Position numbers and translations under genes: made by a program. A DNA stretch of 64,000 bases from NCBI GenBank assembly GCA_016177705.1, contig JACOUT010000005.1, positions 286,374-350,373 on the forward strand, written 5' to 3'. The notes under the pieces were generated by a model. It was given only the letters and a program-made list of their open reading frames with translations. It made no database searches and was not told the origin of the DNA. This document shows positions 2,809-20,637 of the stretch, in pieces (the first letter of the stretch is position 1; every line of letters starts with the position of its first letter). The DNA is from Deltaproteobacteria bacterium. Its GTDB lineage: Bacteria; Myxococcota; UBA727; VGSZ01.

Positions 2809-4494
2809 GTGCGTAAGCTGCGGATCGTGGCGCGCACCGACGACGACAACGACCCGCTGATCGGCCGCGTCATCGACGGGCGCTTCACAGTCCAAAGCGT
2901 GCTCGGCCGCGGCGGCATGGGGGTGGTGTACCGCGCGCACCAGGCGAGCCTCGAGCGCAGCGTCGCGCTCAAGGTGATGGCGGCAGCACCCCACGACGAG
3001 GAGAGCGGCTCGCGCGAGGCGGAGTTCCAGCGGCGCTTCTTCTTGGAGGCCGCCACGGTGGCGCGCCTCAAGCACCCGAACACCATCACCGTCTTCGACT
3101 ACGGCAGCAGCGTGGTCGACGACCAGCGCATCTTCTTCATCGCCATGGAGCTGCTCGACGGCACGCCGCTGTCGAAGCTCGTCTCGCAGGGGCGCGCGCT
3201 CGAGCCGATCCGCGCGGTGCACATCGCGCTGCAGATCTGCCGCGCGCTGCGCGAGGCGCACCGCGCCGGCATCGTGCACCGCGATCTCAAGCCCGGCAAC
3301 GTCATGATCCTGCGCCCGGAGCAGGGCGACGACGACGACGAGGGCGACGGCGACTTCGTCAAGGTGCTCGACTTTGGCCTGGCCAAGACGCGCACCTTCG
3401 ACGGCGCCAAGCCGATCGCAGGCCTGACCAAGTCGGGCTCCTTCATGGGCTCGCCGCGCTACTCGGCGCCCGAGCAGGTGGAGGGCCGGCCCGTCGACGC
3501 GCGCGCCGACATCTACTCGATGGGCTGCCTGCTCTACCGGCTGGTGTCGGGCAAGACGCCCTTCGACGGTCAGACGCCGGTCGAGATCATGCTCAAGCAC
3601 CTGCACGACGGCGTGCCCCCGCTCGACGTCGACGGCCTGCCCGAGACGCTCGAGCGCTTGGTGATGGAGTGCCTCGAGAAGGACCCGGCCGAGCGCCCGC
3701 AGAGCATGGACGTGGTCATCCAGCGCCTGAAGCTCGCGCGCGCCGAGCTCGGTGGCCCGTCGTCGGGCGTGGTGGTGCTCTCGGACGAGCGCACCTCGTT
3801 GCCGCCGCAGTTGCCCGTCAGCTCGCTCGTCGACGGCGGGCCCCTCGTCGACCCGAGCTTCTCCGCCGACGAGCTGCCGCCGCCCGAGCCCGAGCTGCTC
3901 GAGACCGCGCTGGCCAGACCCGTCGCGCGCCCTGTCACGGCGTGGCCGACGCCGGCGCGCGAACAGACCGCGCCCTCGACGGTCTCGCCCGGCGCGCTGC
4001 GGCTGGAAGACCACACGCCGTCGTCGCGCGGCGGCTCGCGCCTGTCGGTGATCGCGCGGCCGCCGCGCCGGCCGTGGGCTGCCATCGCTGCCGGCATCGT
4101 GCTCGGCCTGGCCATCTGCGTCGGCTTGATCGCGTGGCGCCTCGGCAGCCTCGATCCGTTGATCGTGCGGCTGTGGGCCGGCGAGACCGGCGCCAGCACC
4201 CCCCATGAACCGCCGCCGCAACACGGGCCCTTCGCCGAGCTCGCGCGCGTGCGCATCAAGACCACGCCGCCCGGCGCCGACGTGCTCGAGGTGCAAGGCG
4301 GCCTGCCGCGCCTGCTCGGCGTGACGCCGCTGACCTTGACCTGGGACGTCGCCAAGGAGCCGCGCCGCCGCGAGCTGGTGCTGCGGCAAAGCGGCTATCG
4401 CGCCGCGCGCGCCACGCTCGATCCGCCGGCGCCGCGCGGCCTGCCGAGCGAGCCCGTCTGGCTCGACGTCGAAGCGACGTTGCGCCGCGAGTGA
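2809..4494 (+). CDS. Eukaryotic-like Ser/Thr protein kinase with Pro-rich linker, one TM helix and a C-terminal PEGA-like domain
   Basis: GRGGMGVVYRA (Gly-loop), ALKVM (VAIK-type Lys), HRDLKPGNVM (catalytic loop), DFGLAK, SPRYSAPE. TM WAAIAAGIVLGLAICVGLIAW, then ...VRIKTTPPGADVLEV...TPLTLTW (PEGA-like). GTG start at 2809. Confidence 0.85.
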   Translation: MRKLRIVARTDDDNDPLIGRVIDGRFTVQSVLGRGGMGVVYRAHQASLERSVALKVMAAAPHDEESGSREAEFQRRFFLEAATVARLKHPNTITVFDYGSSVVDDQRIFFIAMELLDGTPLSKLVSQGRALEPIRAVHIALQICRALREAHRAGIVHRDLKPGNVMILRPEQGDDDDEGDGDFVKVLDFGLAKTRTFDGAKPIAGLTKSGSFMGSPRYSAPEQVEGRPVDARADIYSMGCLLYRLVSGKTPFDGQTPVEIMLKHLHDGVPPLDVDGLPETLERLVMECLEKDPAERPQSMDVVIQRLKLARAELGGPSSGVVVLSDERTSLPPQLPVSSLVDGGPLVDPSFSADELPPPEPELLETALARPVARPVTAWPTPAREQTAPSTVSPGALRLEDHTPSSRGGSRLSVIARPPRRPWAAIAAGIVLGLAICVGLIAWRLGSLDPLIVRLWAGETGASTPHEPPPQHGPFAELARVRIKTTPPGADVLEVQGGLPRLLGVTPLTLTWDVAKEPRRRELVLRQSGYRAARATLDPPAPRGLPSEPVWLDVEATLRRE

Positions 4495-4955: not shown

Positions 4956-5021
4956 ACAGCGACGCGCCGCCGCGCCCCTGGCGGGACACGGCGGCGCCGT
5001 CGACACGGGTTGCAGCGTCGA

Positions 5022-6227
5022 TCAGTTCGCCACGCACTGCGGCAGCGGCGGGCAGGGCGCGCGGATGCACATCACCTGCACCAGCTCGCAGTGCTCACCC
5101 TCGGCGCAGGCGAAGTCCCAGCAGCGGTCGCGCTCGAGCACGCGGTCGACGTCGAGCTCGGTGGTGGTCAGGCGTACCTCGCCTTCGCAGGTGGTCTCGA
5201 TGCCGAAGCTCTGCGCGAGCTCCTCGGGGATCGGGTAGCCCAACGGGTCCTGCACCGGGTAGAGCTGCACCGCGAATCCCTGGTGCTCCCAGGTGCCGTG
5301 CATCGACAAGAGCCGGCTCGCCATACGGCAGTAGGGCGGCGTCAGCGTGCACAGCGGATCCCACACCTGCTCGTAGGTGAAGCTGCCGTCGGCGAGCAGC
5401 ACCAGGCGGGAGGAGATGCGGTAGGTCTCGTCCTGTCCGCCGCCGATCCAGGCGCCCACGACGTCGACGAAGCCGTCGGGCTTGGCCCACACCATCGGGT
5501 CGCACACGCAAGCGGTGGCGTAGTCGACGTTGACGCCGGCGCTGGACGCGGCGCAGGAGCCGCCGTAGGTCTTGCCGTCGCAGCCGCACACCTCGGGGCC
5601 GTAGACGGCCGGGCAGATCTCGGCGGGACGCGCGCAGGCGCCGCCGCGGTCGTCGCGGCCGCAGCCCTCCTCGATGGCGCAGTACAGGCCGTCGTCGCAC
5701 AGCTTGCTGGCGCCGAGCGTGCCGCAGATCTCGCCGGGCTGCGCCAACGGCGCGCAGTTGCCGTCGTTGCGCGCGCAGCTCACCTGCCACGTGAGCGACA
5801 GCGGCGACGCGTTGCCGGCGGCCTCGACGACGTAGGTGCCGCCGTTCTTCGAGCGCAGCCGGGTCCAGGCCCAACCGTCTCGGCCGTCGACGCTGCCGAG
5901 CAGCGTCAGCGTGCCGTCGGCCTTGACCCGGTAGACCTTGAAGCCGACGCCGGTGTCCGAGCCGTCGGCGGTCCACACGTCGATCCAGACCTTGCCGCCG
6001 GCGACCAGCTCGAAGGCGCCGTACTGCCAGGGCAGCTCGTCGGTCAGCGTGAAGCTGCGCTCCTCGCCGAGGTAGATGCGCACCGTCTCGACGTCGATGG
6101 GCGTGGTGAAGGCGCCGGTCGTGTCGCTGTCGATCAGCTCGACGCCGTCGTCCTGCGAGACCTCGTTGCTGCAGCCGAGCGCCACCAGCGCAGCGCCGAC
6201 CGCCAAGAGCGAAAGATTACGTTGCAT
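5022..6227 (-). CDS. Cys-rich secreted lipoprotein with Kazal-type inhibitor-like domain
   Basis: Signal peptide plus lipobox (LAVGAALVALGCS); Kazal signature PEVCGCDGKTYGGSCAA...VDYATAC; more than 30 Cys. Confidence 0.6.
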   Translation of the reverse strand: MQRNLSLLAVGAALVALGCSNEVSQDDGVELIDSDTTGAFTTPIDVETVRIYLGEERSFTLTDELPWQYGAFELVAGGKVWIDVWTADGSDTGVGFKVYRVKADGTLTLLGSVDGRDGWAWTRLRSKNGGTYVVEAAGNASPLSLTWQVSCARNDGNCAPLAQPGEICGTLGASKLCDDGLYCAIEEGCGRDDRGGACARPAEICPAVYGPEVCGCDGKTYGGSCAASSAGVNVDYATACVCDPMVWAKPDGFVDVVGAWIGGGQDETYRISSRLVLLADGSFTYEQVWDPLCTLTPPYCRMASRLLSMHGTWEHQGFAVQLYPVQDPLGYPIPEELAQSFGIETTCEGEVRLTTTELDVDRVLERDRCWDFACAEGEHCELVQVMCIRAPCPPLPQCVAN

Positions 6228-6364
6228 GGGACCCCTCCTCGAAAGTGATGCCCAGTCATCCTCCCTTCGACGCGGTGCGCAAGAGGGGGGATATCGACCT
6301 ACATCACAACTTCGCGGCAGGGCCTGACGTCGTCACCGGCCCTTGTGACGGCCGGCGCAAGGGC

Positions 6365-7390
6365 TCAGAGCAGGAGCGCTCGGTAGGTAGGCAGGTTCTC
6401 GAGCACGGTGCCGACGCCGTCGACCACGGCATGCAGCGGGTTTTCCGCCACGAACACGGGGAGCTGGCACTCCTCGGACAAGAGCGCGTCGAGGTTCTTG
6501 ATCATGGCGCCGCCGCCGCACAGCACGATGCCGCGGTCGATGATGTCGGCCGACAGCTCGGGCGGTGTCTTCTCGAGCGTCGCCTTCACCGCCGCCACGA
6601 TCTGCCGGATGCAGTCGCTCATCGCCTCGCGGATCTCGATGGAGGTGAGCGTGATCTGGCGCGGCACGCCGGTGATCAGATCGCGGCCCTTGACGTCGAT
6701 GTCGAGCTCTTCGTCGAGCGGGTAGGCCGAGCCGATCTTCATCTTGATCAGCTCGGCGGTGCGCTCGCCGATCAGGATGTTGTGGCGCTTGCGGACGAAA
6801 TTGACGATGGAGTCGTCGAGCTTGTCGCCGGCGACGCGCAAGGTCTGCGACGACACCAGGCCGCCGAGCGAGATGACCGCGACGTCGGTGGTGCCGCCGC
6901 CGATGTCGATGATCATGCTGCCGCGCGCGTCCTGCACCGGCAGGCCCGCGCCCACGGCCGCCGCCATCGGCTGCTCGATCAGGTGCACCTCGCGCACGCC
7001 GGCGCCGAGCGCGGCCTCGCGCACGGCCTTCTGCTCGATGCTGGTGATGCCTGCGGGCACCGAGATGATCAGCCGGCTCCGCGCGAAGTACTTCTTCTCG
7101 TTCGCCTTCTCGATGAACGACTTGATCATCGCCTCGGTGACGGTGAAGTCGGCGATGACGCCGTCTCTCATCGGTCGAATGGCGGTGATGTTGCCCGGCG
7201 TCTTGCCGAGCATCTCTTTGGCGTCGCGTCCGACGGCGAGCACCTTGGTGGTGTTGCCGTTCTTCGAGATGGCGACGACCGACGGCTCGTTCAGCACCAC
7301 GCCCTTGCCGCGCACGTGCACCAGTGTGTTGGCGGTGCCGAGATCGATCGCGAGGTCGGTGGAGAACAGATTGGTGAACTTCTCGAACAC
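6365..7390 (-). CDS. mreB: Rod-shape determining actin homolog MreB
   Basis: MFEKFTNLFSTDLAIDLGTANTLVHV..., full-length MreB/Mbl with phosphate-1 motif DLGTANT; 341 aa. Confidence 0.9.
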   Translation of the reverse strand: MFEKFTNLFSTDLAIDLGTANTLVHVRGKGVVLNEPSVVAISKNGNTTKVLAVGRDAKEMLGKTPGNITAIRPMRDGVIADFTVTEAMIKSFIEKANEKKYFARSRLIISVPAGITSIEQKAVREAALGAGVREVHLIEQPMAAAVGAGLPVQDARGSMIIDIGGGTTDVAVISLGGLVSSQTLRVAGDKLDDSIVNFVRKRHNILIGERTAELIKMKIGSAYPLDEELDIDVKGRDLITGVPRQITLTSIEIREAMSDCIRQIVAAVKATLEKTPPELSADIIDRGIVLCGGGAMIKNLDALLSEECQLPVFVAENPLHAVVDGVGTVLENLPTYRALLL

Positions 7391-7532
7391 GGCGCTGGGT
7401 CCCGCGTGCCGCGGTGCGGCACGGACGGGACAGTTTCACGATTCCGCGCCGGTTGTCACGCCCGGAGGAGGACGAAACGCCGCTGGCAGCCGGCGCGCGC
7501 CGTCGCCGGCATGGTGGCGCCCCGGTCCATGC

Positions 7533-9344
7533 TCAACGGTCGCCCGAGAAGCGGGCGTCGACCACGCTGCCGTCGTCGGCCGGCGCGTTGCCGGGGACGT
7601 CGGTCGACGACGTAGGCGGCAGCGTCACGGCGCGCACGCGGCCGGGGCCGTCGGCGGGCCGAGGGCGCTGGCTCTCGGCGCGCGGCGGCGTGGTCGGCGC
7701 GGGCGGCGCCGTGCGCGGGGTCCAGGTCCAGGTGGTCGTCGACGGCGAGAAGCCGTCGAGCAGCTCGCCCGCGCGCGCCGCGAACGGCTCGCCGAAGGCA
7801 CGCGCGGCCTCGAGCGCGGCCTGCGCCTCGGCGGTGTCGTGGCGGCGCAACGCCTCCAAGCACAAGAGCGCGAGCGTCTGCTCGCCGCGGCGAAAGGCGG
7901 CCATCAGCCGCGCCACGGCGCCGCTCATGCCCGGCGGCAGGTGGGCGCGCGTAAACGACGCCGCGACCACGCGCACTTCGGGGTGGTCGTCCTCCAGGCG
8001 GCCGAGCACGTCGTCGACCAGCAGGATCGGCGGCGGGTCGTCGTCGGCGAACATGCCCTCGAGCAGCGCGATGGCGGCCTTGCGGGTGCTGGCGGTGGCG
8101 CCGTTCACCTCGGGTCGCACGCGATGGCGCACGCGCACGCGCAGGGGCGGCGGCGTGATGGTGACGCGCGAGAGCGCGATCAGGATCGCCTCGCGCACCG
8201 CGGGACGTGGCGAGCGTCGCTCGAGCGCCGACAAGAGCGGGCGCACCAGCTCCACGTCGTCCTCGCGCGCGCCCTCCGCCAGCGCCACGGCGGCGCTCTC
8301 GACGACGAAGGGGTCGTCCTCGACGATGGCCTGCACGACCACGCGCATGCCGGCGCGGTCGGCGAGGCGGCCCAGGCACAGGAGCGCGGCGGCGCGCACG
8401 AAGCGGTCCTCGTCCCTGGCGAGCGGCACGATGGACGCCGCCAGGCCGTCCTCGATGCCGGTCAGGCAGTTGGCGAGCGCGCGCAGCGCCACCGCGCGTA
8501 GCTCACGCTCGTCGTCGGTGGCGGCGGGCGCGGTGGCGGCGATCAGGAGCGGCACGGCGGCGTCGGTGGCCTGCAGGCGGCCGAGCACCAAGGCGGCGCC
8601 GATGCGCGAGCGCGGCTGCGGCTGGTTCAGCTTGTCGATCAGGAAGGGCACCGCGCCCTTGCCGGCGCCGACCAGCGCAGCCGCCGCAGCGTCGCGCACG
8701 GCGCGGCGGGCGTCGCCGAGGTCGTCGAGCCATGGCTTGAGCGCGCCGCCGTCGGCGTTGGCCTGCGCCACCAGCGCGGCGAAGTCGCCGGCGCCCGTGT
8801 CCGAAGCCGCGAGGGCTTCGGTCTCGGCGAGGCGCGCGAGCACCGCTTGCGCCTGGTCGCGCACCCAGGGATCGGGGTCGCGTGCCAGCGCCTGCACGCG
8901 CGCCTTGCTGCGCAGGTCACCGAGCGCGCCAAAGGCCTGCGCGGCGAAGGCGCGCGTGGTGCGCTCAGGGTCGGCCGCGAGCGCCTCGACGGCGGCGCGC
9001 GCACGATCGTCGAACGCATCTTGGCCGTCGAGCAGCCCGGCGAGCGCGCGCGCGACGAAGGGGCGCTGCTCGGGCGTGAGATCGCGCGCCTCGATGCGCG
9101 CGAACAGCGCGGGCAGCGCCTCGCGCGCGCGTAAGGCGCACAGCAGCAGCGCGGCCCGCGTGACCGGCGATGGTGAGCCGGTGCGCGCAACCGCCTCGAC
9201 CAGGTGCGGTACGGCCGCGGCGCCGGCGCCGAGCAGCGTCCCTTCGCCGGCGTCGCGCTCGGCACGGTCGGGCGCGCCGAGCGCGGCGGCAGCGGCGCGC
9301 AACCGCGCTGCTTGCGCCGAATCCAAGAAGGGCTCGCCCGGCAT
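7533..9344 (-). CDS. HEAT/PBS-lyase-type repeat protein
   Basis: 603 aa of Ala/Leu/Arg-rich helical repeats (...DPWVRDQAQAVLARL..., ...DRFVRAAALLCLGRL...); HEAT-like periodicity; no catalytic motifs seen. Confidence 0.6.
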   Translation of the reverse strand: MPGEPFLDSAQAARLRAAAAALGAPDRAERDAGEGTLLGAGAAAVPHLVEAVARTGSPSPVTRAALLLCALRAREALPALFARIEARDLTPEQRPFVARALAGLLDGQDAFDDRARAAVEALAADPERTTRAFAAQAFGALGDLRSKARVQALARDPDPWVRDQAQAVLARLAETEALAASDTGAGDFAALVAQANADGGALKPWLDDLGDARRAVRDAAAAALVGAGKGAVPFLIDKLNQPQPRSRIGAALVLGRLQATDAAVPLLIAATAPAATDDERELRAVALRALANCLTGIEDGLAASIVPLARDEDRFVRAAALLCLGRLADRAGMRVVVQAIVEDDPFVVESAAVALAEGAREDDVELVRPLLSALERRSPRPAVREAILIALSRVTITPPPLRVRVRHRVRPEVNGATASTRKAAIALLEGMFADDDPPPILLVDDVLGRLEDDHPEVRVVAASFTRAHLPPGMSGAVARLMAAFRRGEQTLALLCLEALRRHDTAEAQAALEAARAFGEPFAARAGELLDGFSPSTTTWTWTPRTAPPAPTTPPRAESQRPRPADGPGRVRAVTLPPTSSTDVPGNAPADDGSVVDARFSGDR

Positions 9345-9457
9345 CGCTCGACTCTGGTATTGGCGTGCCCATGACGCAACCAGGCGTCAGCCCACGTTCG
9401 GACGCCAAGTGCAGATCCAGCTTGCGTTTCGCCCACCGGAGTGAGTAAACACTAACC

Positions 9458-10681
9458 ATGCTGTCGTTGCTCGGCCTCGCGGTTCGCAACCTGGCGCGGC
9501 ACCGGCGCCGAACGGCGATGATCCTGGCCGCCATCGCCCTCGGCGTTACCGCGGTGGTCGGCGTGCGGGGCTTCTTGAACGGGCTGCAGTCGACGCTGGT
9601 GCGCGGCTTCGCCGAGGGCACGGTCGGCGCCATGCAGGTGCATGCGCAGGGCTTCATGCAGTCGAACGAGGCAGCGCCGCTCACGCCCAACCTCGATGTC
9701 TCGGGCGAGCTGCTCACGAAGATCGAGGCGGTGCCGGGCGTCAAGGCGGCGGCCCCGCGCATCACGTTTCCCAGCATGCTGTCGATCGGCGACTCGACCG
9801 CGTTCGTGCTCGCGGTGGGCGTCGACCCCGCGCGCGAGCAGGGCTGCTGCCCGCGCCGCCTCGACCTGGTCGAGCAAGGGCGCTTCCTCGCCGGTGCGAG
9901 CGAGAGCCTGGTGGGGCTCGAGGTGTTGCGCGGCCTTGGCGGCAAGGTCGGCGGCAAGGCGGCGCTGCTCACCGGCGACGTCGACGGCGTGATGAACGCG
10001 GTCGACACCGACGTGGTCGGCCAGGTCGCCGCGCCCACCCAGGGAGAGAAGAAGCTGGTGCTGCTCTCGCTTGCCGCTGCGCAGGAGTTGGTGCGCCTGC
10101 CCGGCCGCGCCACCGAGATCGCCGTGGCCGTCGACGACCTCGACCACGTGCATCAGGTGGCCGACCGTGTACGCGTGGCGCTCGGGCCCACCTACGATGT
10201 GCGCACCTGGGACGAGCTGGCCACGGTCGCGCGCGACGCCGTCGCCATCCAGAACCGCGCGCTCGGCGTCGTCACCGGCGCCTTCCTCATCGTCATCTTG
10301 GTGGGCGTCACCAACGCGCTCCTGACCAGCGTGCTCGAGCGCGTGCGCGAGATCGGCACCTTGATGGCCGTTGGCGCCCGGCGGCGGCAGGTGCTGTTCT
10401 TGTTCCTGTTCGAGGCCGCGGCGCTCGGCGTGGTCGGCGCCGCCATCGGCTGTGCCGCGGGCAGCGCGATCGTCGCCGTGCTCGGCGTCAAAGGCGTCAC
10501 GCTGACCACGCCCGGCGCGTCGCTGCCGCAGACGCTGTACCCCTTCATCAGGCTCGACTTCCTGCTGCGCATGGTGGCGCTCTCGACGGTGGGCGCGACG
10601 CTCGCGTCCTTGTGGCCCGCGTGGAAGGCGAGCCGGCTGCGGCCGGTGGAGGCGCTTGCCGGCGTCGGGGGTGGCGGATGA
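9458..10681 (+). CDS. ABC transporter permease, FtsX/LolC/LolE/MacB family
   Basis: N-terminal TM (RTAMILAAIALGVTAVVGV), large periplasmic domain, then C-terminal 3-TM FtsX core (LGVVTGAFLIVILVGVTNALL..., ...FLFEAAALGVVGAAIG...). Low-GC leader with GGAGTGAG about 12 nt upstream of the ATG. Confidence 0.8.
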   Translation: MLSLLGLAVRNLARHRRRTAMILAAIALGVTAVVGVRGFLNGLQSTLVRGFAEGTVGAMQVHAQGFMQSNEAAPLTPNLDVSGELLTKIEAVPGVKAAAPRITFPSMLSIGDSTAFVLAVGVDPAREQGCCPRRLDLVEQGRFLAGASESLVGLEVLRGLGGKVGGKAALLTGDVDGVMNAVDTDVVGQVAAPTQGEKKLVLLSLAAAQELVRLPGRATEIAVAVDDLDHVHQVADRVRVALGPTYDVRTWDELATVARDAVAIQNRALGVVTGAFLIVILVGVTNALLTSVLERVREIGTLMAVGARRRQVLFLFLFEAAALGVVGAAIGCAAGSAIVAVLGVKGVTLTTPGASLPQTLYPFIRLDFLLRMVALSTVGATLASLWPAWKASRLRPVEALAGVGGGG

Positions 10682-11919
10682 GGCGCCGCATCGCCGACGT
10701 GCTGCGCATCGCGCTGCGCTCGCTGCGCAGAAACCGCCGCAGGAGCGCGCTCACGTTGGCGGCGGTCATCATCGGCGTCACCGTGGTGGTGTTCGCCTTC
10801 GGCTTCGGCGAAGGATTGACCACGTCGCTGGTGCGAACGCTGGTCGACGCGCGTATCGGCGCGCTGCAGGTGCACGCCATCGGCTACCTCGACGCCGTCG
10901 AGGCCCAGCCGCTCAAGAAGGACTTCGCGCTCGACGACGAGCTGCTCGCCAAGGTCAAGGGCACGCCCGGCGTCGCCTCGGTGGCGCCGCGCCTGCGCTT
11001 CGGCGCGCTGCTCGGCGACGGTGCCACCGCGACCATCGTCATGGTCGACGCGGTCGACCCAAGAAACGAGTTGCTGGTGTGTCCGGCGCGCAAGCAGGAG
11101 GTGCCCGCTAATCACGGCGCCTTCGTCGACGACGCGCAGCCGCATGGCGGCGTGCTCGGCGCCGAGCTGGCGTCCGGCCTCAAGAGCAAGCTCGGCGCCA
11201 CGCTGACCCTGCAGGCGGCGGGCAAGGAGGGGCAGTTGAATGCGCTCGACCTCGAGGTGCGCGGCATCTCGCGCGGCGCCGCCAGCTTCCTCGAGTCCAA
11301 GCGCTCGGTGACGGTGCCGCTCGCCTATGGCCAGGAGCTGTTGCAGATGCAGGGCCGCGCTACCGAGCTGGCGCTCCAGCTGGACGACGTGCGGCGCGTC
11401 GACGAGGTCAAAGCCGCGCTGCAAGCGCGCCTCGGGCCCGGCTTCGAGGTCTCCACCTGGGCGGAGGTCATGCCGTTCCTGCGCGACGCCACTTCGCGAG
11501 TGCAGATCATCTTGCGCGGCGTCTCGGTCGTGCTGTTCTTCCTGGTCGTGTTCAGTGTGGTCAACACCATGCTGATGAACGTCTACGAGCGCGTGCGCGA
11601 GATCGGCACCCTGCTCGCCATCGGCTGGAAGCGCCGCACCATCCTCGCGCTGTTCGTGCTCGAGGCGGCGGTGCTCGGCCTGCTCGGCGGCGCCATCGGC
11701 GCCTCTCTCGGTCTCTTGCTGACGCGCTTCACCTACGAGGTTGGCATCCCGCTGACGCCGCCTGGGGCCGGCTTCGAACAGATCATCCGGCCGGTGCCCG
11801 ACGTGAACATCGCGTTGCTCGCGTTCGCGGCGGCGGCGCTCGGCGCCGTGCTCGCCGCGCTCGGCCCCGCCAAGCGCGCGTCCGACTTGAACCCCGTCGA
11901 CGCGCTACGGTCGACCTGA
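10678..11919 (+). CDS. ABC transporter permease, FtsX/LolC/LolE family (second copy)
   Basis: The ATG at 10678 overlaps the upstream stop (ATGA). Same 1+3 TM FtsX architecture (ALTLAAVIIGVTVVVFAFG...; ...FVLEAAVLGLLGGAIGASLG...). Confidence 0.8.
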   Translation: MRRRIADVLRIALRSLRRNRRRSALTLAAVIIGVTVVVFAFGFGEGLTTSLVRTLVDARIGALQVHAIGYLDAVEAQPLKKDFALDDELLAKVKGTPGVASVAPRLRFGALLGDGATATIVMVDAVDPRNELLVCPARKQEVPANHGAFVDDAQPHGGVLGAELASGLKSKLGATLTLQAAGKEGQLNALDLEVRGISRGAASFLESKRSVTVPLAYGQELLQMQGRATELALQLDDVRRVDEVKAALQARLGPGFEVSTWAEVMPFLRDATSRVQIILRGVSVVLFFLVVFSVVNTMLMNVYERVREIGTLLAIGWKRRTILALFVLEAAVLGLLGGAIGASLGLLLTRFTYEVGIPLTPPGAGFEQIIRPVPDVNIALLAFAAAALGAVLAALGPAKRASDLNPVDALRST

Positions 11920-11937
11920 TCGATCGAGGAGGCTTCC

Positions 11938-12651
11938 ATGCTCGCGTTCGCGCTCACCCTCTCGCTCGCCGCTGCCCCACCGTCCTCACCCGACGCGCTC
12001 GCGCTGGTGCGCCGCTACGACGCGGTCATGAGCCCCGCGAACTTCGAGGCGCAGACCAAGATGGTGGCCACGCGCGAAGACGGCACGACGCGCACCTACA
12101 AGATGAAGACGCAGAAGAGCGGCAAGGACAAGCTGCGCGCGCAGTTCCTCGAGCCGGCCTCGGCCAAGGGGCAGGAGATGCTGAGAAACGGCGAGAACCT
12201 CTGGCTGTGGATGCCGAACCTGAAGCGCGCCGTGCGCGTCGCCTCGCGCGACAGCTTCATGGGTGGCGACTTCAACAACGCCGACGTGCTGCGCGTCAAT
12301 TACGAGGCCGACTATCAGCCGAGCATCGAGACCGGCGATCCCGCCGGCGACGTCCTGGTGCTCAAGGCCAAAGCGCAGAGCGCCGCCTACGACGCAATCA
12401 AGCTGTGGATGACGCGCGACAAGGATCCGCAGCCGATCAAGGCCGAGTTCTACGCGGCCAGCGGCAAGATCCTGCGCAAGGCCGAGTTCTTCGACGTCAA
12501 AGACTTCGGCGGCGGCCTGGTGCGGCCCTCGCGCATCAAGATGACCAACGAGATCTCGGCGGGCCGTTCGAGCGAGATGAGCTGGGAGGCGATCACGCTG
12601 AAGGACGAGATCCCGGCGCAGCGCTTCGTGCTCGACGACCTGGGGCGGTGA
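11938..12651 (+). CDS. LolA-like outer-membrane lipoprotein carrier/sorting protein (COG2834-type)
   Basis: Signal peptide MLAFALTLSLAAA; about 215-aa mature protein. ...RTYKMKTQKSGKDKLRAQFLEPASAKGQEMLRNGENLWLWMP... resembles the LolA/LppX-like half-barrel family; start lies 19 nt after the permease stop. Confidence 0.55.
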   Translation: MLAFALTLSLAAAPPSSPDALALVRRYDAVMSPANFEAQTKMVATREDGTTRTYKMKTQKSGKDKLRAQFLEPASAKGQEMLRNGENLWLWMPNLKRAVRVASRDSFMGGDFNNADVLRVNYEADYQPSIETGDPAGDVLVLKAKAQSAAYDAIKLWMTRDKDPQPIKAEFYAASGKILRKAEFFDVKDFGGGLVRPSRIKMTNEISAGRSSEMSWEAITLKDEIPAQRFVLDDLGR

Positions 12652-12655
12652 TGAG

Positions 12656-14128
12656 GTGCTGGCGCTCGCGCTGCTCCTGCCGTGCGATCTCGAGCTGCAA
12701 GGCTCGGTGGCGGAGCGCGTGCAGGCGACGGTGCCGAACGAGGACAGCCTGCTGTCGACGCGCGACGTACCCGAGCTGTTGTCGCTCTCCGAGGTGAACG
12801 CGCAGGTGCGTGGCGGGCTGCTCGACGATCATCTGCGGCTCGGCGTCGACGCCTCCGCTTTCCTGCCCGTGCAAGGTGGCTACGCCGATCGCGACGTCGA
12901 CACCGGCCAGCTCGTCGAGGTCGACCCCGACGTCGTGACGCCGCCCGATCCCCGGATCGCGCTCTCCGAGTGGTGGCTGTCGGCCGAGCCGGTGCCGCAC
13001 CTGCTGCTGACCGCGGGGAAGAAACGCTCGACCTGGGGCTCGGGGCAGATGGCCTCGCCGAGCGACGTGCTCAACCCGCCGCGCGACCCAACCGATCCGG
13101 CGCTGCAGCGCGCCGGCTTCTTGCATCTGCGCGCCGACGCCGCCTTCGAGTCGTGGACGGTGAGCGCGCTGTTCGCGCCCGGCGTGCTGCGCACCGCGAA
13201 CAGCCTGCCTGCGGAGCTGCTGCTCGACGACGACGACGAGCTCCACTACGCGGCCGCGCTGCGCGGCTACGCGCTGCTGTTCGATACCGACGTCAACGCC
13301 TGGGTCGTTTGGTCGAACCGCTACGGTGACGCCTTCGAGAACCACCTGCGCTACGCCTTCTCGCTGTCGCGCACCATCTTCCTCGAGCACGAGGTCCACG
13401 CCGATGTGCTGGTCGAGCAGGGCAGCACGCGGCTCTACGTCGAGCCCGATTGTGTCGGCGGCCCGCGGGCGATCCTGGCGTGCGCGCTCGCCGGCACGCC
13501 CATCGCCGACGACGCGCTGCTCGACTCCGAGCGCGTGTTGCCGAAGATCCTGGTCGGCTGGCGCTGGATGCCGCCCGACGGCAGCATGGTCACCGCCGAG
13601 TACCTTTATCAGGCCGACGGCATGGTCAAGGCCGAGTACGACGACCTGAAGGAGATCGCCGTGCTCGCCGGCACGGCGCAGCGCTCCGGCGCTCCCGGCG
13701 CGGTGGCGTTGCCGGGCGCGCCCGCCGACGGCGGCGACGAGACGCCGGTGCGCGTCTCGTTTGCGCCGCAGCGTCGCCACTACCTCTTGCTCTCCTGGCT
13801 CAAGCCCCAGGTGGCCGACGACTTCACCTTGCAGGCCTCGGCCATCGTGCCGGTCGAGGATCTGTCGATGTTGGTGAGCGGCTCGGTCGCCTGGCAGGCC
13901 CAGCAGTGGCTGACGCTGTCCGTGCTCGGCTTCTTGCCGGTGCCGTCGCCGGCGATGCTGTCCTACCGCACCGACGACGACCCGCTCGGCGCGTTCTATC
14001 AAGACCTGCCGCAGGACTGGCGCGGCTGGTTCCCGCGCGGCGCCACCGTCGAGGGCGGGCCGCACGGCGACTTCGACGGCGGACCCTTTCACGCGCGCAT
14101 CATGATCGAAGCGCGCGCCTACTTTTGA
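12656..14128 (+). CDS. Putative outer-membrane beta-barrel protein (uncharacterised family)
   Basis: GTG start 5 nt after the LolA-like stop. 490 aa; C-terminus ...HARIMIEARAYF has alternating hydrophobics and a terminal Phe (OMP beta-signal). No recognisable enzymatic motifs; signal peptide weak or start uncertain. Confidence 0.4.
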   Translation: MLALALLLPCDLELQGSVAERVQATVPNEDSLLSTRDVPELLSLSEVNAQVRGGLLDDHLRLGVDASAFLPVQGGYADRDVDTGQLVEVDPDVVTPPDPRIALSEWWLSAEPVPHLLLTAGKKRSTWGSGQMASPSDVLNPPRDPTDPALQRAGFLHLRADAAFESWTVSALFAPGVLRTANSLPAELLLDDDDELHYAAALRGYALLFDTDVNAWVVWSNRYGDAFENHLRYAFSLSRTIFLEHEVHADVLVEQGSTRLYVEPDCVGGPRAILACALAGTPIADDALLDSERVLPKILVGWRWMPPDGSMVTAEYLYQADGMVKAEYDDLKEIAVLAGTAQRSGAPGAVALPGAPADGGDETPVRVSFAPQRRHYLLLSWLKPQVADDFTLQASAIVPVEDLSMLVSGSVAWQAQQWLTLSVLGFLPVPSPAMLSYRTDDDPLGAFYQDLPQDWRGWFPRGATVEGGPHGDFDGGPFHARIMIEARAYF

Positions 14129-14141
14129 TGCCGAGGTTCCC

Positions 14142-14828
14142 ATGAGCGCCATCATCGAGCTCGTCGACGTGAAGAAGGACTACCGGCTCGGCGGCATCGT
14201 GGTGCCGGCCTTGAAAGGCGTGAACCTGGTAGTGCAGCCGGGCGAGCTGACGGCGGTGATGGGGCCGTCGGGCAGCGGCAAGAGCACGCTGCTCAACATC
14301 CTCGGTTGCCTCGATCGGGTGACCGCGGGCAGCTACAAGCTCGAGGGCGTCGAGGTGGGTCAGACCGACTTCGACCAGCTCGCCGAGGTCAGGAACGAGA
14401 AGATCGGCTTCATCTTCCAGTCGTTCAACCTGATCCCGGTGCTCGACGTGCTCGAGAACATCGAGCTGCCCTGCCTGTTGCGCGCGCGGCCGGAGTCGCG
14501 TGTCGCGCTGCGGGCGCGCGCCAAGAAGATCGCCGACGAGGTGGGCCTCACCTCGGTGGTGCATCATCGGCCCGACGAGCTCTCCGGTGGGCAGCGCCAG
14601 CGGGTCGCCATCGCGCGCGCGTTGGTGACCACGCCGAAGCTGGTGCTGGCCGACGAGCCGACCGCGAACCTCGACAGCGAGACCAGCGCACAGATCCTCA
14701 AGCTGATGCTGGCACTCAACCGCGATCACGGTGTCACCTTCCTGTTCTCGACCCACGATCCGCGCGTGGAGAAGCATGCGCGACGTCGCCTCGAGATCAG
14801 CGATGGCGTGCTGCGCGAAGCTGCGTGA
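14142..14828 (+). CDS. ABC transporter ATP-binding protein (LolD/MacB-type)
   Basis: Walker A GPSGSGKST, Q-loop, signature LSGGQRQRVAIARAL, Walker B LVLADEPT, H-loop STHD. Confidence 0.85.
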   Translation: MSAIIELVDVKKDYRLGGIVVPALKGVNLVVQPGELTAVMGPSGSGKSTLLNILGCLDRVTAGSYKLEGVEVGQTDFDQLAEVRNEKIGFIFQSFNLIPVLDVLENIELPCLLRARPESRVALRARAKKIADEVGLTSVVHHRPDELSGGQRQRVAIARALVTTPKLVLADEPTANLDSETSAQILKLMLALNRDHGVTFLFSTHDPRVEKHARRRLEISDGVLREAA

Positions 14829-14853
14829 TGCTCCGCGAGGTGGCGGGGTGATC

Positions 14854-15141
14854 ATGGCGGCCGAGCAATTGCTGGTGAGCGGCGTGGTGCAGATGGTCGG
14901 CTACCGGGCCTGGACGCTGCGCACGGCGCGTTCGCTCGGAGTGACAGGCTTCGTGCGCAACCTGGCGGACGGGCGCGTCGAGATCTTCGTCGAGGGAGAC
15001 GCGCGCGCCATCGACGAGCTGGCGACTGCGTGCCGGCGCGGGCCGACGCATGCCCATGTCGACGGCGTCACGCGTGCGCCGAGGCCGGCGCGCGGCTCGA
15101 GCACCTTCGCGCTGCTCGACGACGCCGCCGCGCCCGACTGA
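14854..15141 (+). CDS. acyP: Acylphosphatase
   Basis: 95 aa; VSGVVQMVGYRAWT and GFVRNLADGRVEIFVEG are acylphosphatase signatures 1 and 2. The ATG at 14854 is internal to track ORF 14731..15141. Confidence 0.75.
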   Translation: MAAEQLLVSGVVQMVGYRAWTLRTARSLGVTGFVRNLADGRVEIFVEGDARAIDELATACRRGPTHAHVDGVTRAPRPARGSSTFALLDDAAAPD

Positions 15142-15235
15142 TGGGCGGCTGCTCTGCGCGCGGGAGTACACTCGTCCGACGCAACTGATCCCGCACACGG
15201 AACCGAAGTGTTGCGCGTGCGGTCCCGAGGTGCAC

Positions 15236-17677
15236 ATGAACCGTCGCGGTCGCTTCCTGATCGTGGGCCTGGCGGGCGCTGCTGCTGCGGCCATCGTCGT
15301 CGCGTGGTCGCTCGCGGGTGGTGCCGCCGCCGAGACGCCGACCCAGGCGCGCGACCGGCGTGAACGCAAGATCGAGGAGCTGCAAGAGCGCGCCCAAGAG
15401 CTGCTGCGCGACCCAAAGCGTCAGCAGGAGGCCTACGCGTTGTTCGAGGAGGCCGCGCGCCTGTTGGAACAGCCCACGGAAGGCGAGCCCGCCCTCACCC
15501 TCAAGGCGATCCCGCAGGGCGACGTGTTCGGCTTCCAGGCGGCTTTCGACAAGGCGCTCAAGGCGCGGACCGGCGCCACGTCGGCGATGTTGGCGGCCCG
15601 AGCACCCGCCTTCGCGACGGCGGCGCCCAAGGTGCAGGGCGCGAAGTACCTCGATCGCATGCTGACGCCGAAGACGCACGACCACCCAAACCCGGCTCGC
15701 GCGCTCGATGCGGCCGAGCGCGCCGTGCTCGATCAGCAGGGCTTCGTCGTCAGCGCACGCCTCGGCGCGGCCAGCGCCGCAGGCCTGATGCACACCATCT
15801 ACGAGCACGATCAGCCGTTGTTCGTCTCCGCGGACGCCGTGCTGCACGCCTGGCACATGAGCTACGACGCCATGCTGGAGGAGCTCGAGAGCACCTGGCT
15901 GCTCGGCGCCCTCGAGCAGCTCTTGGCCGAGATGGCGGGCGCCATCCCCATCGTCGCCAAGGAGTCGCGGTCGAGCGCGCTCGGGCAGGGCGTCAAGGAC
16001 GCGGACCTGTACCTCGCGGTCGGGCGCTCGCTGCTCGCGGACAAGCCGGTGAAGCCTATGCTCGGCGGCGCCAGTGAGGTCGAGGAGCTGGTGCGCGCCA
16101 TCCAGGACGAGCAGGTCAAAAAGGTACAGCTCTTCGGACGGACGCGCACCGAGGACTTCTCGCAGATGCGTCCACGTGGCCACTACGACAAGAGCGAAGC
16201 GCTGCGTCGCTACTTCCGCGCCATGATGTGGCTCGGCCGCACGGAGTTGAAGGTCGCCGGCCCGGACAGCGCGCCAGCAGAGCTTGCGGCCGCCGTGGTG
16301 CTGCACGACCTGCTGACGACGTCGAAGCAGCTCGATGCGTGGCGACAGATCGATCGCGTGCTGCAGACCTTCGTCGGACGCTCCGACTCGATGGGTCCGC
16401 CCGACATCAGTGCCTTGCTCACGCTCGGCCGCTTCTCCTCGGCTCGCGCCGTCGCGACCGACGCCGATCTCGAGGTGCTGCGCCGGCTGGTGCTCGACAC
16501 CCGCATGGGCGCGCAGCAGGTGAACGCTCAGATCGCCTTGTCCGATCCCGAACGCGCCGAGCGTGTCGAGCTGCCGCGCGCCTTCTGCCTGCTCGGGCAA
16601 CGCTTCACCATCGACTCATGGGTGACGGGGCAGGTGGTGTACGACCGCATCCTCGTCGACGGCCGCAAGGTCGAGCGCGTGCTGCCGAGCGGCGTCGACA
16701 TCGCGTTCGCCGCGCTCGCCAACGACAACGTCGCCGACCTGCTGGCATCGCGCATCGAGCGCGGCCCGCTCGGGGGCCGCGATCGCCTGCCGTTCCAGGC
16801 CAACCTGCTGGCGGCGCGCGACGCGGTCGACGCAAGGAGCGTGCACGCTTGGGACGGTAACCTCTATGACCTCTGGCTGTCGGCGCTGCGCGGGCTGTCC
16901 GCGCCGACCACGTCGCCCGAGTTCCCGGCGGTGATGCGCACGCGCGCGTGGTCTCGGCGGGTGCTGCAAGCACAGCTCGCGTCCTGGGCGGAGCTGCGCC
17001 ACGACACGATCCTCTACGTCAAGCAGAGCTACGGCATGGGCATCACCTGCGAGCACCCGAGCGGCTTCGTCGAGCTGGCGCCGCAGTTCTGGGCGCGCAT
17101 GGAGGCGGGCGCCTCGCTCGCCACCACGCTGCTCGGCAAGACGCCGTACCCGCCGGCGCTGGCCGGCACCAAGGAGCGGCAGGTAACGTTCGCAAGGAGC
17201 TTCGCGGCCACCATGGGTACGCTGCGCGGCATCGTCGAGCGCGAGCGGACCTCCCAGCCGCTCGACGCCGCGCAGGAGGCGTTCCTCAAGGACGCCGTCG
17301 AGATCACGCACGGCGGCATGTGTGGCGCGCCGCCCCGATGGGACGGCTGGTACCTGGACCTCTACTACCGAGGCCAAGCGGACGCGCTTAAGACCGACGC
17401 GCTGGTCGCCGACGTCTACACGCACCCGCAAGCCGGCATCCTGCACGCCGCCACCGGCCCGTTCAGTCTGATGGTGGTGGTGATCGACCGCGGCGGCGAC
17501 CGCATGGCGTTCGCGGGGCCGGTGTCGAGCTACTACGAGTGGGTGCCGGCGGGCGGCAAGCGCCTGACCGACCACGAGTGGAAGGTGCAGCTCTCCGAGG
17601 GCAAGGCGCCAGCACCGCCGGAGTGGATCGAGGGCTGGCAGGTGGGCAAGCCGGTCCAGATCCGGGCCGACGAGTAG
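15236..17677 (+). CDS. Large (813 aa) hypothetical protein with N-terminal signal/anchor; possibly DUF3160-like
   Basis: The ATG at 15236 is internal to ORF 15050..17677. MNRRGRFLIVGLAGAAAAAIVVAWSLAGG, then a long mixed alpha/beta region with no catalytic motifs I recognise. Family call is weak. Confidence 0.5.
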   Translation: MNRRGRFLIVGLAGAAAAAIVVAWSLAGGAAAETPTQARDRRERKIEELQERAQELLRDPKRQQEAYALFEEAARLLEQPTEGEPALTLKAIPQGDVFGFQAAFDKALKARTGATSAMLAARAPAFATAAPKVQGAKYLDRMLTPKTHDHPNPARALDAAERAVLDQQGFVVSARLGAASAAGLMHTIYEHDQPLFVSADAVLHAWHMSYDAMLEELESTWLLGALEQLLAEMAGAIPIVAKESRSSALGQGVKDADLYLAVGRSLLADKPVKPMLGGASEVEELVRAIQDEQVKKVQLFGRTRTEDFSQMRPRGHYDKSEALRRYFRAMMWLGRTELKVAGPDSAPAELAAAVVLHDLLTTSKQLDAWRQIDRVLQTFVGRSDSMGPPDISALLTLGRFSSARAVATDADLEVLRRLVLDTRMGAQQVNAQIALSDPERAERVELPRAFCLLGQRFTIDSWVTGQVVYDRILVDGRKVERVLPSGVDIAFAALANDNVADLLASRIERGPLGGRDRLPFQANLLAARDAVDARSVHAWDGNLYDLWLSALRGLSAPTTSPEFPAVMRTRAWSRRVLQAQLASWAELRHDTILYVKQSYGMGITCEHPSGFVELAPQFWARMEAGASLATTLLGKTPYPPALAGTKERQVTFARSFAATMGTLRGIVERERTSQPLDAAQEAFLKDAVEITHGGMCGAPPRWDGWYLDLYYRGQADALKTDALVADVYTHPQAGILHAATGPFSLMVVVIDRGGDRMAFAGPVSSYYEWVPAGGKRLTDHEWKVQLSEGKAPAPPEWIEGWQVGKPVQIRADE

Positions 17678-18628: not shown

Positions 18629-20533
<1,905 letters not shown>

Positions 20534-20557
20534 GGCGCGATGGTACTCCCGGTCACC

Positions 20558-20593
20558 TGCACGGGCACGGGCACGGGCACGGGCACGGGCACG
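20558..20593. repeat. (GCACGG)5-6 perfect hexanucleotide tandem repeat in the divergent intergenic/5' region
   Basis: ...cctgcacgggcacgggcacgggcacgggcacgggcacgttgacg... Would encode (Arg-Ala)n if the minus-strand kinase started upstream. Coordinates +/-2. Confidence 0.8.
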
Positions 20594-20637
20594 TTGACGC
20601 CTGCCGTTGTTCGGCATCCTGCTAGAGTCCCCCACCC

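Follow-up and report, generated by a model that had tools for sequence, protein, structure and literature searches.

Does a Lol-like ABC cassette that encodes its own outer-membrane β-barrel provide the missing acceptor of general lipoprotein sorting, or does it serve some other trans-envelope export? An earlier note on this DNA raised both possibilities for five adjacent genes of a Deltaproteobacteria bacterium (Myxococcota), located in a stretch of 64,000 nucleotides (hereafter the window). The five genes are the following.

permA, 9458..10681, + strand: type VII (MacB/LolC-like) ABC permease, 407 aa, with four TM helices and a periplasmic MacB_PCD domain
permB, 10678..11919, + strand: second type VII ABC permease, 413 aa
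carrier, 11938..12651, + strand: soluble periplasmic protein of the LolA3/TP_0789 type (PF17131), 237 aa, with no lipobox cysteine
barrel, 12656..14128, + strand: predicted 18-stranded outer-membrane β-barrel, 490 aa, of a family without annotation
ATPase, 14142..14828, + strand: ABC ATPase of the LolD/MacB/YbbA group, 228 aa

All five open reading frames were found at these coordinates. The stop codon of permA and the start codon of permB overlap in an ATGA read directly at positions 10678-10681, and the remaining gaps are of 18 nt between permB and the carrier gene (11919 to 11938), 4 nt between the carrier and barrel genes (12651 to 12656) and 13 nt between the barrel and ATPase genes (14128 to 14142), confirming the compact, co-directional layout that had been described. 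GC3 lies between 0.91 and 0.94 in all five genes (0.94 for permA), and each displays the order GC3 > GC1 > GC2 typical of real genes, in a genome of 72% GC. Products of 407, 413, 237 and 490 aa were reproduced by independent gene calls in other assemblies, and the dN/dS values of the five genes, calculated against the two closest relatives (0.12-0.33), indicate purifying selection. The genes directly upstream are carried by the minus strand and encode a HEAT-repeat protein (7533-9344) and MreB (6365-7390). Three + strand open reading frames in the same region (5010-9444) were considered as members of the operon and rejected, since codon-position GC and Pfam both show the opposite strand to be the coding one. 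The operon therefore begins at 9458. A scan of positions 9200-15300 returned no promoter-like site, and terminator-like sites at background level only.

Both permeases contain the FtsX and MacB_PCD domains of Pfam above cut-off (4e-16 and 8e-13 for permA, 5e-18 and 1e-17 for permB), which correspond to the 4-TM module and the MacB-like periplasmic domain of type VII ABC transporters, and they are accompanied by a cognate ATPase (ABC_tran, 4e-33). The best solved relative of permA is E. coli LolC (7arh_C, E 3e-17), aligned over its full length, while those of permB are MacB (5nik, 3e-17) and LolE (7arh_E, 1e-15). With 39% identity between them, permB is likely to be the heterodimer partner of permA. 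Within the cassette, conservation is strongest for the ATPase (64-93% identity in the Myxococcota loci, 53-60% in the most distant ones), and its scores do not separate the subgroups of the family: LolD is the top NCBIfam match with 222.7 bits, followed by the MacB nucleotide-binding domain (211 bits) and YbbA (208.5 bits), in keeping with the loose LolD/MacB-type assignment made at first sight. None of the three components reaches a Lol equivalog, however. permA and permB score 100.5 and 84 bits with the lolCE model TIGR02212 (cut-off 362 bits) and 37-82 bits with the LolC and LolE exception models (cut-offs 439-540), and the ATPase remains below the cut-off of 307.75 bits of the LolD model TIGR02211. 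In LolC, a periplasmic hairpin called the ‘Hook’ recruits LolA. In this region the E. coli LolC segment around ‘TPMGRIPSQRLF’ is matched in permA by ‘DGVMNAVDTD’, with 2 + 4 residues deleted, according to a phmmer sequence alignment only.

The carrier matches the LolA_like family PF17131 (E 9e-36, above the gathering score), but not the LolA profile PF03548 above its own gathering score. Its predicted fold, the extended 13-strand half-barrel of 3buu and 9tp6 that goes with the TP_0789-like (‘LolA3’) class, resembles LolA3/DUF1329 twice as closely as it does LolA. A conserved segment, R-D-S-F-x-G-G-D-F-N-N-x-D (residues 104-116), lies at the predicted mouth of the cavity. Profile and fold searches thus agree on the LolA-like nature of the protein, and on the basis of the model we assign it with confidence to the LolA superfamily, as a half-barrel of the LolA3/NE2245/DUF1329 class. 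Inspection showed that the Arg-Pro motif, which closes the cavity of LolA from the β2-β3 loop, is replaced by S-G-K-D between predicted strands 51-61 and 65-72. Similarly, the exposed Leu of LolB is absent from the β3-β4 loop, which reads PASAKGQ in the sequence set against the predicted secondary structure. No conserved lipobox Cys is found in either the carrier or the barrel family. The putative signal peptides are unusually short in the clade of the window (approximately 13 aa for the carrier and 10 aa for the barrel) and have no basic n-region; those of more distant homologues of both proteins are canonical. Members of the LolA3/PF17131 class include P. gingivalis LolA3 (9tp6), N. europaea NE2245 (3buu), V. 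parahaemolyticus 3bk5 and F. johnsoniae Fjoh_0605. The P. gingivalis protein does not bind LolB and has neither the LolA Arg nor the LolB Leu hallmark (PMC13103446), and deletion of lolA3 in F. johnsoniae gives neither a gliding nor a T9SS phenotype (PMC11885536). A literature search for TP0789, after which PF17131 is named, retrieved proteome lists only. In Bacteroidota the partner operon of this class encodes an MMPL transporter and ABC ATP-binding proteins, unlike the two FtsX permeases found here, and such ABC/MMPL/PF17131 operons are linked to TetR (PMC10434189). Those of P. gingivalis (PG1175-81) and Prevotella also encode hypothetical proteins.

The 490-aa protein has an N-terminal signal peptide, a C-terminal aromatic β-signal (...IMIEARAYF) and the predicted fold of a closed antiparallel barrel. 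The modelled structure makes us confident that it is a porin-like outer-membrane barrel of 18 strands, which bears out the barrel prediction of the earlier note. Signal peptides and β-signal are seen across the family, and the terminal F or Y is retained in all relatives but one. Its closest structural relatives are Occ/OprD proteins and chitoporin, which are uptake channels, AlgE being the only exporter among them. Yet the 18-stranded monomeric barrels OprD/Occ, chitoporin, AlgE and Wzi share only 6-12% sequence identity with it and it matches none of their Pfam families; the resemblance to OprD/Occ is thus one of fold and not of profile. Moreover, none of these proteins is encoded alongside a type VII ABC transporter and a LolA-like protein. 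Pfam and NCBIfam assign no family to the 490-aa protein or to 10 distant relatives; among 30 family members scanned with Pfam at E<=10, the only match was one stray Porin_O_P, and DUF1302 gave no match to the family even at this threshold. Nor did the family profile retrieve any sequence from the PDB. The family nevertheless comprises >1000 clusters at 50% identity, all of them unannotated. Some longer relatives (P0115, P0046, P0044) have N-terminal extensions, and the idea that these might be fused LolA-like domains was discarded: Pfam gives no match for those of P0115 and P0046, and most of the extra sequence consists of low-complexity, Pro/Ala-rich linkers. Loops and turns of the barrel were assigned by applying the customary rule for outer-membrane proteins to the secondary-structure string, and not by reading coordinates. 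On this basis, loop ‘L3’ (residues 124-154) carries the conserved motif NPPRDPTDPxLQRAG and has an identity of 0.81, compared with 0.73-0.81 for the predicted periplasmic turns T1, T2, T6, T7 and T8 and 0.65 for the whole barrel; turns T3-T5 do not exceed the protein average.

A synteny survey, which the earlier note had called for, was carried out as a motif-seeded scan of 185,579 species genomes that can miss divergent copies, and it yielded 69 loci. The order permease-permease-LolA-like-barrel-ATPase is kept in about 60 of them, in unrelated flanks and with barrel identities down to 25%, a combination that goes beyond chance. The observations that might have undone the initial description of the locus, namely a non-barrel 490-aa protein, a failed LolA-like assignment or an unconserved gene order, were therefore not made. 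The loci include Archangium, Hyalangium, Vitiosangium and metagenome-assembled genomes; A. lansingense has two copies, and the cassette is present in myxobacteria that can be cultured (Archangium gephyra, A. lansingense, A. minus, Hyalangium versicolor and Vitiosangium). Complete genomes with the cassette include NZ_CP102578 of A. gephyra and NZ_CP043494 of A. minus. The same motif-seeded scan, with its blindness to divergent copies, returned no locus from the type strains of Myxococcus xanthus, Corallococcus, Stigmatella, Sorangium or Anaeromyxobacter. The cassette is thus conserved across myxobacteria but patchy among Myxococcota. Genes for FtsX permeases and ABC ATPases still accompany the distant relatives of the barrel (L005, L006, L077, L080 and L082; profile E 1e-19 to 1e-42), in most cases together with PF17131; in these loci the gene order is rearranged and there is a single permease. 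One of these loci, L077, adjoins KS/ACP/PPTase/3HCDH/ECH lipid-synthesis genes.

A gene for a cargo protein was sought among the recurrent flanking genes and none is conserved. Only a TetR regulator recurs, lying beside the cassette and in the same orientation in about 29 of the fetched loci, which belong to several lineages; the other flanking clusters are lineage-specific neighbours or artefacts of antisense open reading frames. The cassette of the window itself has no TetR neighbour and its flanks are uninformative. Finally, it should be noted that no gene for a membrane-fusion protein (MacA/HlyD) or a TolC-like protein is present in the cassette or beside it, which makes a shuttle more plausible than a continuous duct.

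We lean towards a self-contained, specialised and often inducible Lol-like module for envelope export, distinct from the housekeeping Lol pathway, whose cargo would most likely be a small hydrophobic metabolite, a lipid or a toxic compound rather than bulk lipoproteins. The permA/permB heterodimer and two copies of the ATPase would form a type VII ABC machine of the MacB/LolCDE class that, as in characterized relatives, would not move its substrate across the inner membrane. It would deliver the cargo to the soluble PF17131 carrier, in whose hydrophobic half-barrel it would be shielded while crossing the periplasm. The carrier would then dock from the periplasmic side on the dedicated barrel of 18 strands, which may insert the cargo into the outer membrane or release it outside, with the conserved loop L3 as a possible gate or specificity element. 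In many relatives, a ligand-sensing repressor of the TetR type would control the module. The ‘novel trans-envelope lipid or lipoprotein exporter’ offered as the second option in the earlier note fits this evidence. Against this reading stand the structural neighbours of the barrel, which are uptake channels except for AlgE, the short signal peptides in the clade of the window, and the absence of a TetR neighbour and of informative flanks for the window's own cassette.

Known systems resemble the cassette in part. The permease of MacAB-TolC is of the same family (FtsX and MacB_PCD) and its ATPase falls in the same subgroup; unlike this pump, the cassette has no fused nucleotide-binding domain, MacA/HlyD adaptor or TolC-type factor, and has a LolA-like carrier and a porin-like barrel instead. 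AmeABCD of Castellaniella defragrans, which confers monoterpene tolerance (PMC6394551), and the Pseudomonas DUF1302/DUF1329 modules likewise combine an inner-membrane pump, a LolA-like protein and an outer-membrane barrel, for hydrophobic compounds. Their pump, however, is an RND/HAE3 proton antiporter and not an ABC transporter, their barrel is of the DUF1302 family and an extra periplasmic protein (AmeC) is present, so that the cassette falls outside the AmeABCD type, which is defined by a DUF1302 barrel, a DUF1329 periplasmic protein and an HAE3 RND pump. Further precedents for modules of this make-up that handle hydrophobic compounds are TOL_3187/3188 of Thalassolituus, induced by an n-C28 alkane (PMC6304351), and the TetR-linked Bacteroidota operons mentioned above. 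Borrelia burgdorferi BBJ23-BBJ29 was proposed computationally in 2026 to combine an inner-membrane pump, a LolA-like protein and a barrel (PMC13078400): a single cluster encodes a MacB-like type VII ABC permease with its ATPase, together with a LolA-like carrier and a β-barrel of the outer membrane. There, in contrast, the barrel is an Omp85-superfamily domain (BamA/TamA-like), the permease is single and homodimeric, TPR proteins are added and the cluster is plasmid-borne, in spirochaetes. The statement that canonical lolCDE loci carry no barrel is therefore true, although Lol-like or LolA-like cassettes with a barrel had already been described.

The Borrelia system provides the model for a first alternative, in which a Lol paralogue would hand a subset of lipoproteins or lipidated proteins (surface-exposed ones, for example) to the barrel acting as insertase or translocon. 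By this analogy the same logic could apply here: acyl chains bind in the cavities of the LolA superfamily, the width of an 18-stranded barrel leaves room for a plug or gate, and L3 is conserved. We nevertheless consider such a route unlikely, as no lipoprotein or other cargo gene is conserved beside the cassette, the TetR linkage points to the sensing of small molecules, the barrel is porin/AlgE-like rather than Omp85- or Slam-like, and LolA3-class proteins have so far shown no role in lipoprotein trafficking. We give equally little credence to a broader version, in which the barrel would be a new type of outer-membrane receptor or translocon taking acylated cargo, lipoproteins or membrane lipid, straight from a LolA-superfamily carrier. 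ABC-driven trafficking would then end at a barrel without the need for LolB, by a route found widely among Myxococcota and Bdellovibrionota and, via the distant relatives, in other diderms.

Transport could also run in the opposite direction: a nutrient or lipid of hydrophobic nature would enter through the barrel, be ferried inwards by the LolA-like protein and be inserted into the inner membrane by the ABC machine. This would suit the substrate-specific uptake channels (Occ/OprD, chitoporin) that are structurally nearest to the barrel, as well as related modules that are induced during growth on alkanes or required for growth on terpenes. To our knowledge, however, the characterized type VII ABC transporters (MacB, LolCDE) all act outwards from the inner membrane. 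In addition, AmeABCD behaves as an efflux/tolerance system and TetR-regulated pumps are typically exporters, so that retrograde transport seems quite improbable.

It is very unlikely that the cassette is the LolCDE-LolA system of the organism, with the barrel as the missing equivalent of LolB. The overall architecture does parallel that of E. coli: two paralogous 4-TM permeases with periplasmic domains, here probably heterodimeric and aligning with LolC (over its full length) and LolE, a separate ATPase with LolD as its top match, and a soluble carrier of the LolA superfamily. Moreover, the outer-membrane step of lipoprotein transport is not yet worked out in Myxococcota. Against this stand the scores of all three ABC components, far under the LolC, LolE and LolD cut-offs, and a carrier that belongs to PF17131 and not to PF03548, is closer in fold to LolA3/DUF1329, has loops devoid of the Arg-Pro motif and the exposed Leu, and is of the type of LolA3, which does not bind LolB (P. 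gingivalis) and shows no lipoprotein-dependent phenotype on deletion (F. johnsoniae). The partner in E. coli, LolB, is a LolA-fold lipoprotein and not an integral 18-stranded barrel. Finally, the cassette is patchy, with only 69 loci in the motif-seeded scan, is duplicated in A. lansingense and is often linked to TetR, which is atypical for an essential pathway. The evidence thus does not support a role of the barrel as outer-membrane acceptor in general lipoprotein sorting. The premise of that proposal, that the acceptor outside LolB lineages is unknown, is itself partly outdated: LolB-less trafficking is already explained in some lineages by a bifunctional LolA (Caulobacter) or by LolB homologues (Bacteroidota). 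As for an ordinary porin fortuitously lodged in an ABC operon, which the generically porin-like fold would allow, the synteny survey effectively refutes it: the barrel gene, tightly enclosed between those of the carrier and the ATPase, keeps this position in about 60 genomes with divergent flanks, and even in distant relatives, where the gene order is rearranged, FtsX ABC genes are still linked to it.

Two formats are known by which type VII ABC transporters span the envelope: a duct, as in MacAB-TolC, and a shuttle to a lipoprotein receptor, as in LolCDE-LolA-LolB. The specialized export module that we favour suggests a third, a shuttle to a dedicated integral barrel. Cassettes of a similar kind had been reported before (AmeABCD, Borrelia BBJ23-29 and Thalassolituus TOL_3187/88), and what is undescribed here is the barrel family. 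The cassette is unlikely to solve the general question of the ‘missing LolB’. It does bring together isolated findings on the orphan LolA3/PF17131 proteins, whose structures are solved but to which no function is assigned, and knowledge of its cargo would reveal by what means hydrophobic metabolites or lipids reach the outer membrane, or pass it, in some diderms.

The cassette comprises five + strand genes at 9458-14828, exactly where the earlier note had placed them, and this observation is confirmed:

9458-10681, + strand, permA, type VII ABC permease, 407 aa
10678-11919, + strand, permB, type VII ABC permease, 413 aa; its own ATG overlaps the permA TGA as ATGA
11938-12651, + strand, carrier, LolA-like protein, 237 aa; GGAGG ribosome-binding site 6 nt upstream
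12656-14128, + strand, barrel, outer-membrane protein, 490 aa; GTG start, 4 nt past the preceding stop
14142-14828, + strand, ATPase, 228 aa; 13-nt gap before its start

All five genes follow the GC3>GC1>GC2 pattern with a GC3 of 0.91-0.94, in a window of about 72% GC. Their product lengths are identical in independent gene calls from other assemblies of the same organism, and dN/dS with respect to the two closest relatives is 0.12-0.33. The + strand ORFs directly upstream were rejected as artefacts; the genuine genes on that side run on the minus strand, so the operon starts at 9458, preceded by a 113-bp divergent intergenic region. The immediate flanks are:

6365-7390, - strand, MreB, upstream
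7533-9344, - strand, HEAT-repeat protein, upstream neighbour
14854-15141, + strand, acylphosphatase (PF00708, E 1e-21), starting 25 nt past the ATPase stop
15050-17677, + strand, long downstream ORF with DUF3160, its 5' end overlapped by the acylphosphatase gene

The DUF3160 match starts at residue 221, and the true start of this gene is therefore probably downstream of 15141. Neither downstream gene is kept beside the cassette in relatives, as judged by flank ORF clustering. The surroundings are of housekeeping and signalling type, with two Ser/Thr protein kinases, MreB, GTP cyclohydrolase I and a Lon substrate-binding-domain protein (2143-2793 and 2809-4494 on the + strand, 6365-7390 and 18629-20635 on the minus strand), together with an acyltransferase (20638-21444); there is no sign of a mobile element or biosynthetic cluster around the cassette. 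Elsewhere, three consecutive large + strand ORFs (34601-42866; 628, 1196 and 931 aa) lie where the GC content of the window is highest (0.76-0.78) and the AT skew strongly negative; they have no Pfam family except a weak Invasin_D3 match. An imperfect (CTCGCC)n hexanucleotide array at 62707-62802 (about 16 copies, 80% matches) probably codes for a low-complexity repeat on one of the strands.

The cassette pairs a type VII ABC machine with a carrier of the LolA superfamily and a barrel of its own. Each permease carries FtsX and MacB_PCD, and the ATPase carries ABC_tran (Pfam). PermA aligns to Escherichia coli LolC over its full length (E 3e-17), permB aligns to MacB and LolE, and the two share 39% identity. 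The cassette contains no membrane-fusion adaptor and no TolC. The carrier is a clear member of PF17131 (LolA_like, now 'TP_0789-like'; 124 bits), with only a sub-threshold match to the LolA profile; among solved structures, NE2245 (3buu, E 4e-24) is nearest to it in sequence, and its AF2 model has a pLDDT of 86.6. It belongs to the LolA3 class, whose studied member fails to bind LolB and has neither the Arg hallmark of LolA nor the Leu hallmark of LolB (PMC13103446); by inspection of sequence and predicted secondary structure, both are missing from our carrier as well.

The barrel represents a sizeable OMP family, unannotated and undescribed until now: an exhaustive profile search returned 1121 clusters at E<=1e-3, 94 of them at E<=1e-30, and ten distant members again matched no Pfam family. 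Most members have canonical signal peptides, and all but one have F or Y as the last residue, together with an alternating hydrophobic pattern. Conservation was mapped on predicted strands, with loops and turns inferred by the usual OMP rule from the secondary-structure string. Conservation peaks in L3, the long loop that follows strand 5 (residues 124-154; identity 0.81; core NPPRDPTDPxLQRAG). Of the eight predicted periplasmic turns, five (T1, T2, T6, T7 and T8) reach 0.73-0.81, compared with 0.65 overall, and most long external loops show 0.49-0.60. This pattern would fit a channel that is gated or plugged and that has a conserved docking face towards the periplasm. One relative, P0044, has an N-terminal extension (residues about 55-125: …VVLLITADGRTLLDG…VAIGADKSVPYDWVVARMAQAKAAGI…) which by eye resembles an ExbD/TolR-type periplasmic domain. 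Two distant members of the barrel superfamily, P0163 and P0140 (profile E 5e-20 and 6e-27), lack ABC gene linkage; an MltA lytic transglycosylase gene directly follows each of them (L078 7001-9948 and L079 5263-8042), which suggests a paralogous subfamily with a peptidoglycan-related partner.

In the clade of the window, the N-termini of carrier and barrel are signal-like segments that are very short and uncharged (MLAFALTLSLAAA/PP, 13 aa, at 11938-11980; MLALALLLPC/D, about 10 aa, at 12656-12690), and neither gene has an earlier in-frame start. Canonical SPI signal peptides of 20-25 aa occur in more distant homologues. These leaders may be export signals of unusually short length.

Three remote homologues (36-47% identity) keep the same five-gene order between unrelated flanks. 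A one-genome-per-species scan gave 69 loci, and tblastn recovered permA-permB-carrier-barrel-ATPase in nearly all of those long enough to judge. Among the carriers of the cassette are Archangium gephyra, A. lansingense (two copies), A. minus, Hyalangium versicolor and Vitiosangium, as well as many Myxococcota MAGs and a Silvanigrella MAG whose barrel is down to 25% identity. It is also present, on contigs of 64-71% GC, in two MAGs that bear the label 'uncultured Enterobacteriaceae bacterium' (L064 and L072); these contigs are probably Myxococcota sequence that was mislabelled or mis-binned. Even far more divergent relatives of the barrel stay linked with FtsX permeases and ABC ATPases, usually keeping PF17131, with a single permease and permuted orders (ATPase-FtsX-carrier-barrel in L006, FtsX-carrier-ATPase-barrel in L082, FtsX-barrel-ATPase in L077 and ATPase-barrel-FtsX in L005). 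The single-permease variant at L077 (929-9611) has no PF17131 gene beside it and follows directly downstream of genes for ketoacyl synthase, ACP, PPTase, 3-hydroxyacyl-CoA dehydrogenase and enoyl-CoA hydratase, a hint that the cargo in that lineage may be a lipid or polyketide. Flank ORF clustering across loci revealed no conserved cargo gene and a single recurrent neighbour: the gene of a TetR-family regulator, which lies immediately beside the cassette and in the same direction in about 29 loci; the cassette of the window has no such neighbour.

Characterized type VII transporters (MacB and LolCDE) extract their substrate from the periplasmic side of the inner membrane. By analogy, the most economical mechanism would be that the ABC machine extracts the cargo, the carrier shuttles it and the barrel inserts or releases it. 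The evidence argues against a housekeeping Lol pathway. Lol models are the top-scoring NCBIfam models for permeases and ATPase, yet far under their own cut-offs (lolCE, 100 and 84 bits for the two permeases against 362; LolD, 223 bits against 308, level with MacB and YbbA). The carrier is of the LolA3 class, without the LolA and LolB hallmarks, and lolA3 deletion in F. johnsoniae gave no gliding or T9SS phenotype (PMC11885536). The distribution is patchy, absences being those of a motif-seeded scan, with paralogous copies, common TetR linkage and no conserved cargo gene. Taken together, this speaks for a cargo of the type of a small hydrophobic metabolite, lipid or toxin. The interpretation given in the earlier note is partly supported: a Lol-like exporter with its own barrel fits the evidence, and the cassette is unlikely to be the missing LolB. 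The accompanying premise, that the outer-membrane acceptor is unknown outside beta-/gamma-proteobacteria, is in part out of date, since Caulobacter has a bifunctional LolA and Bacteroidota have LolB homologues (PMC13103446 and PMC11885536 among the sources).

Cassettes combining an inner-membrane pump, a LolA-like protein and an outer-membrane barrel are already on record. AmeABCD comprises an RND/HAE3 pump, DUF1329 and a DUF1302 barrel, with a monoterpene-tolerance phenotype (PMC6394551); Thalassolituus TOL_3187 is an MMPL protein fused to a LolA-like domain, accompanied by the porin TOL_3188 and induced on n-C28 (PMC6304351); TetR-linked ABC/MMPL/PF17131 operons of Porphyromonas and Prevotella are strongly induced by iron limitation (PMC10434189). 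Closest in logic is Borrelia BBJ23-29, a 2026 computational proposal of a MacB-like ABC transporter, a LolA-like protein and an Omp85-type barrel (PMC13078400). Our cassette differs from each: its pump is ABC rather than RND as in AmeABCD, its barrel is 18-stranded and porin-like and comes from an unannotated family, not from DUF1302 (AmeABCD) or Omp85 (Borrelia), and its probably heterodimeric permeases also set it apart. It is a conserved, testable module with a proposed role in export.
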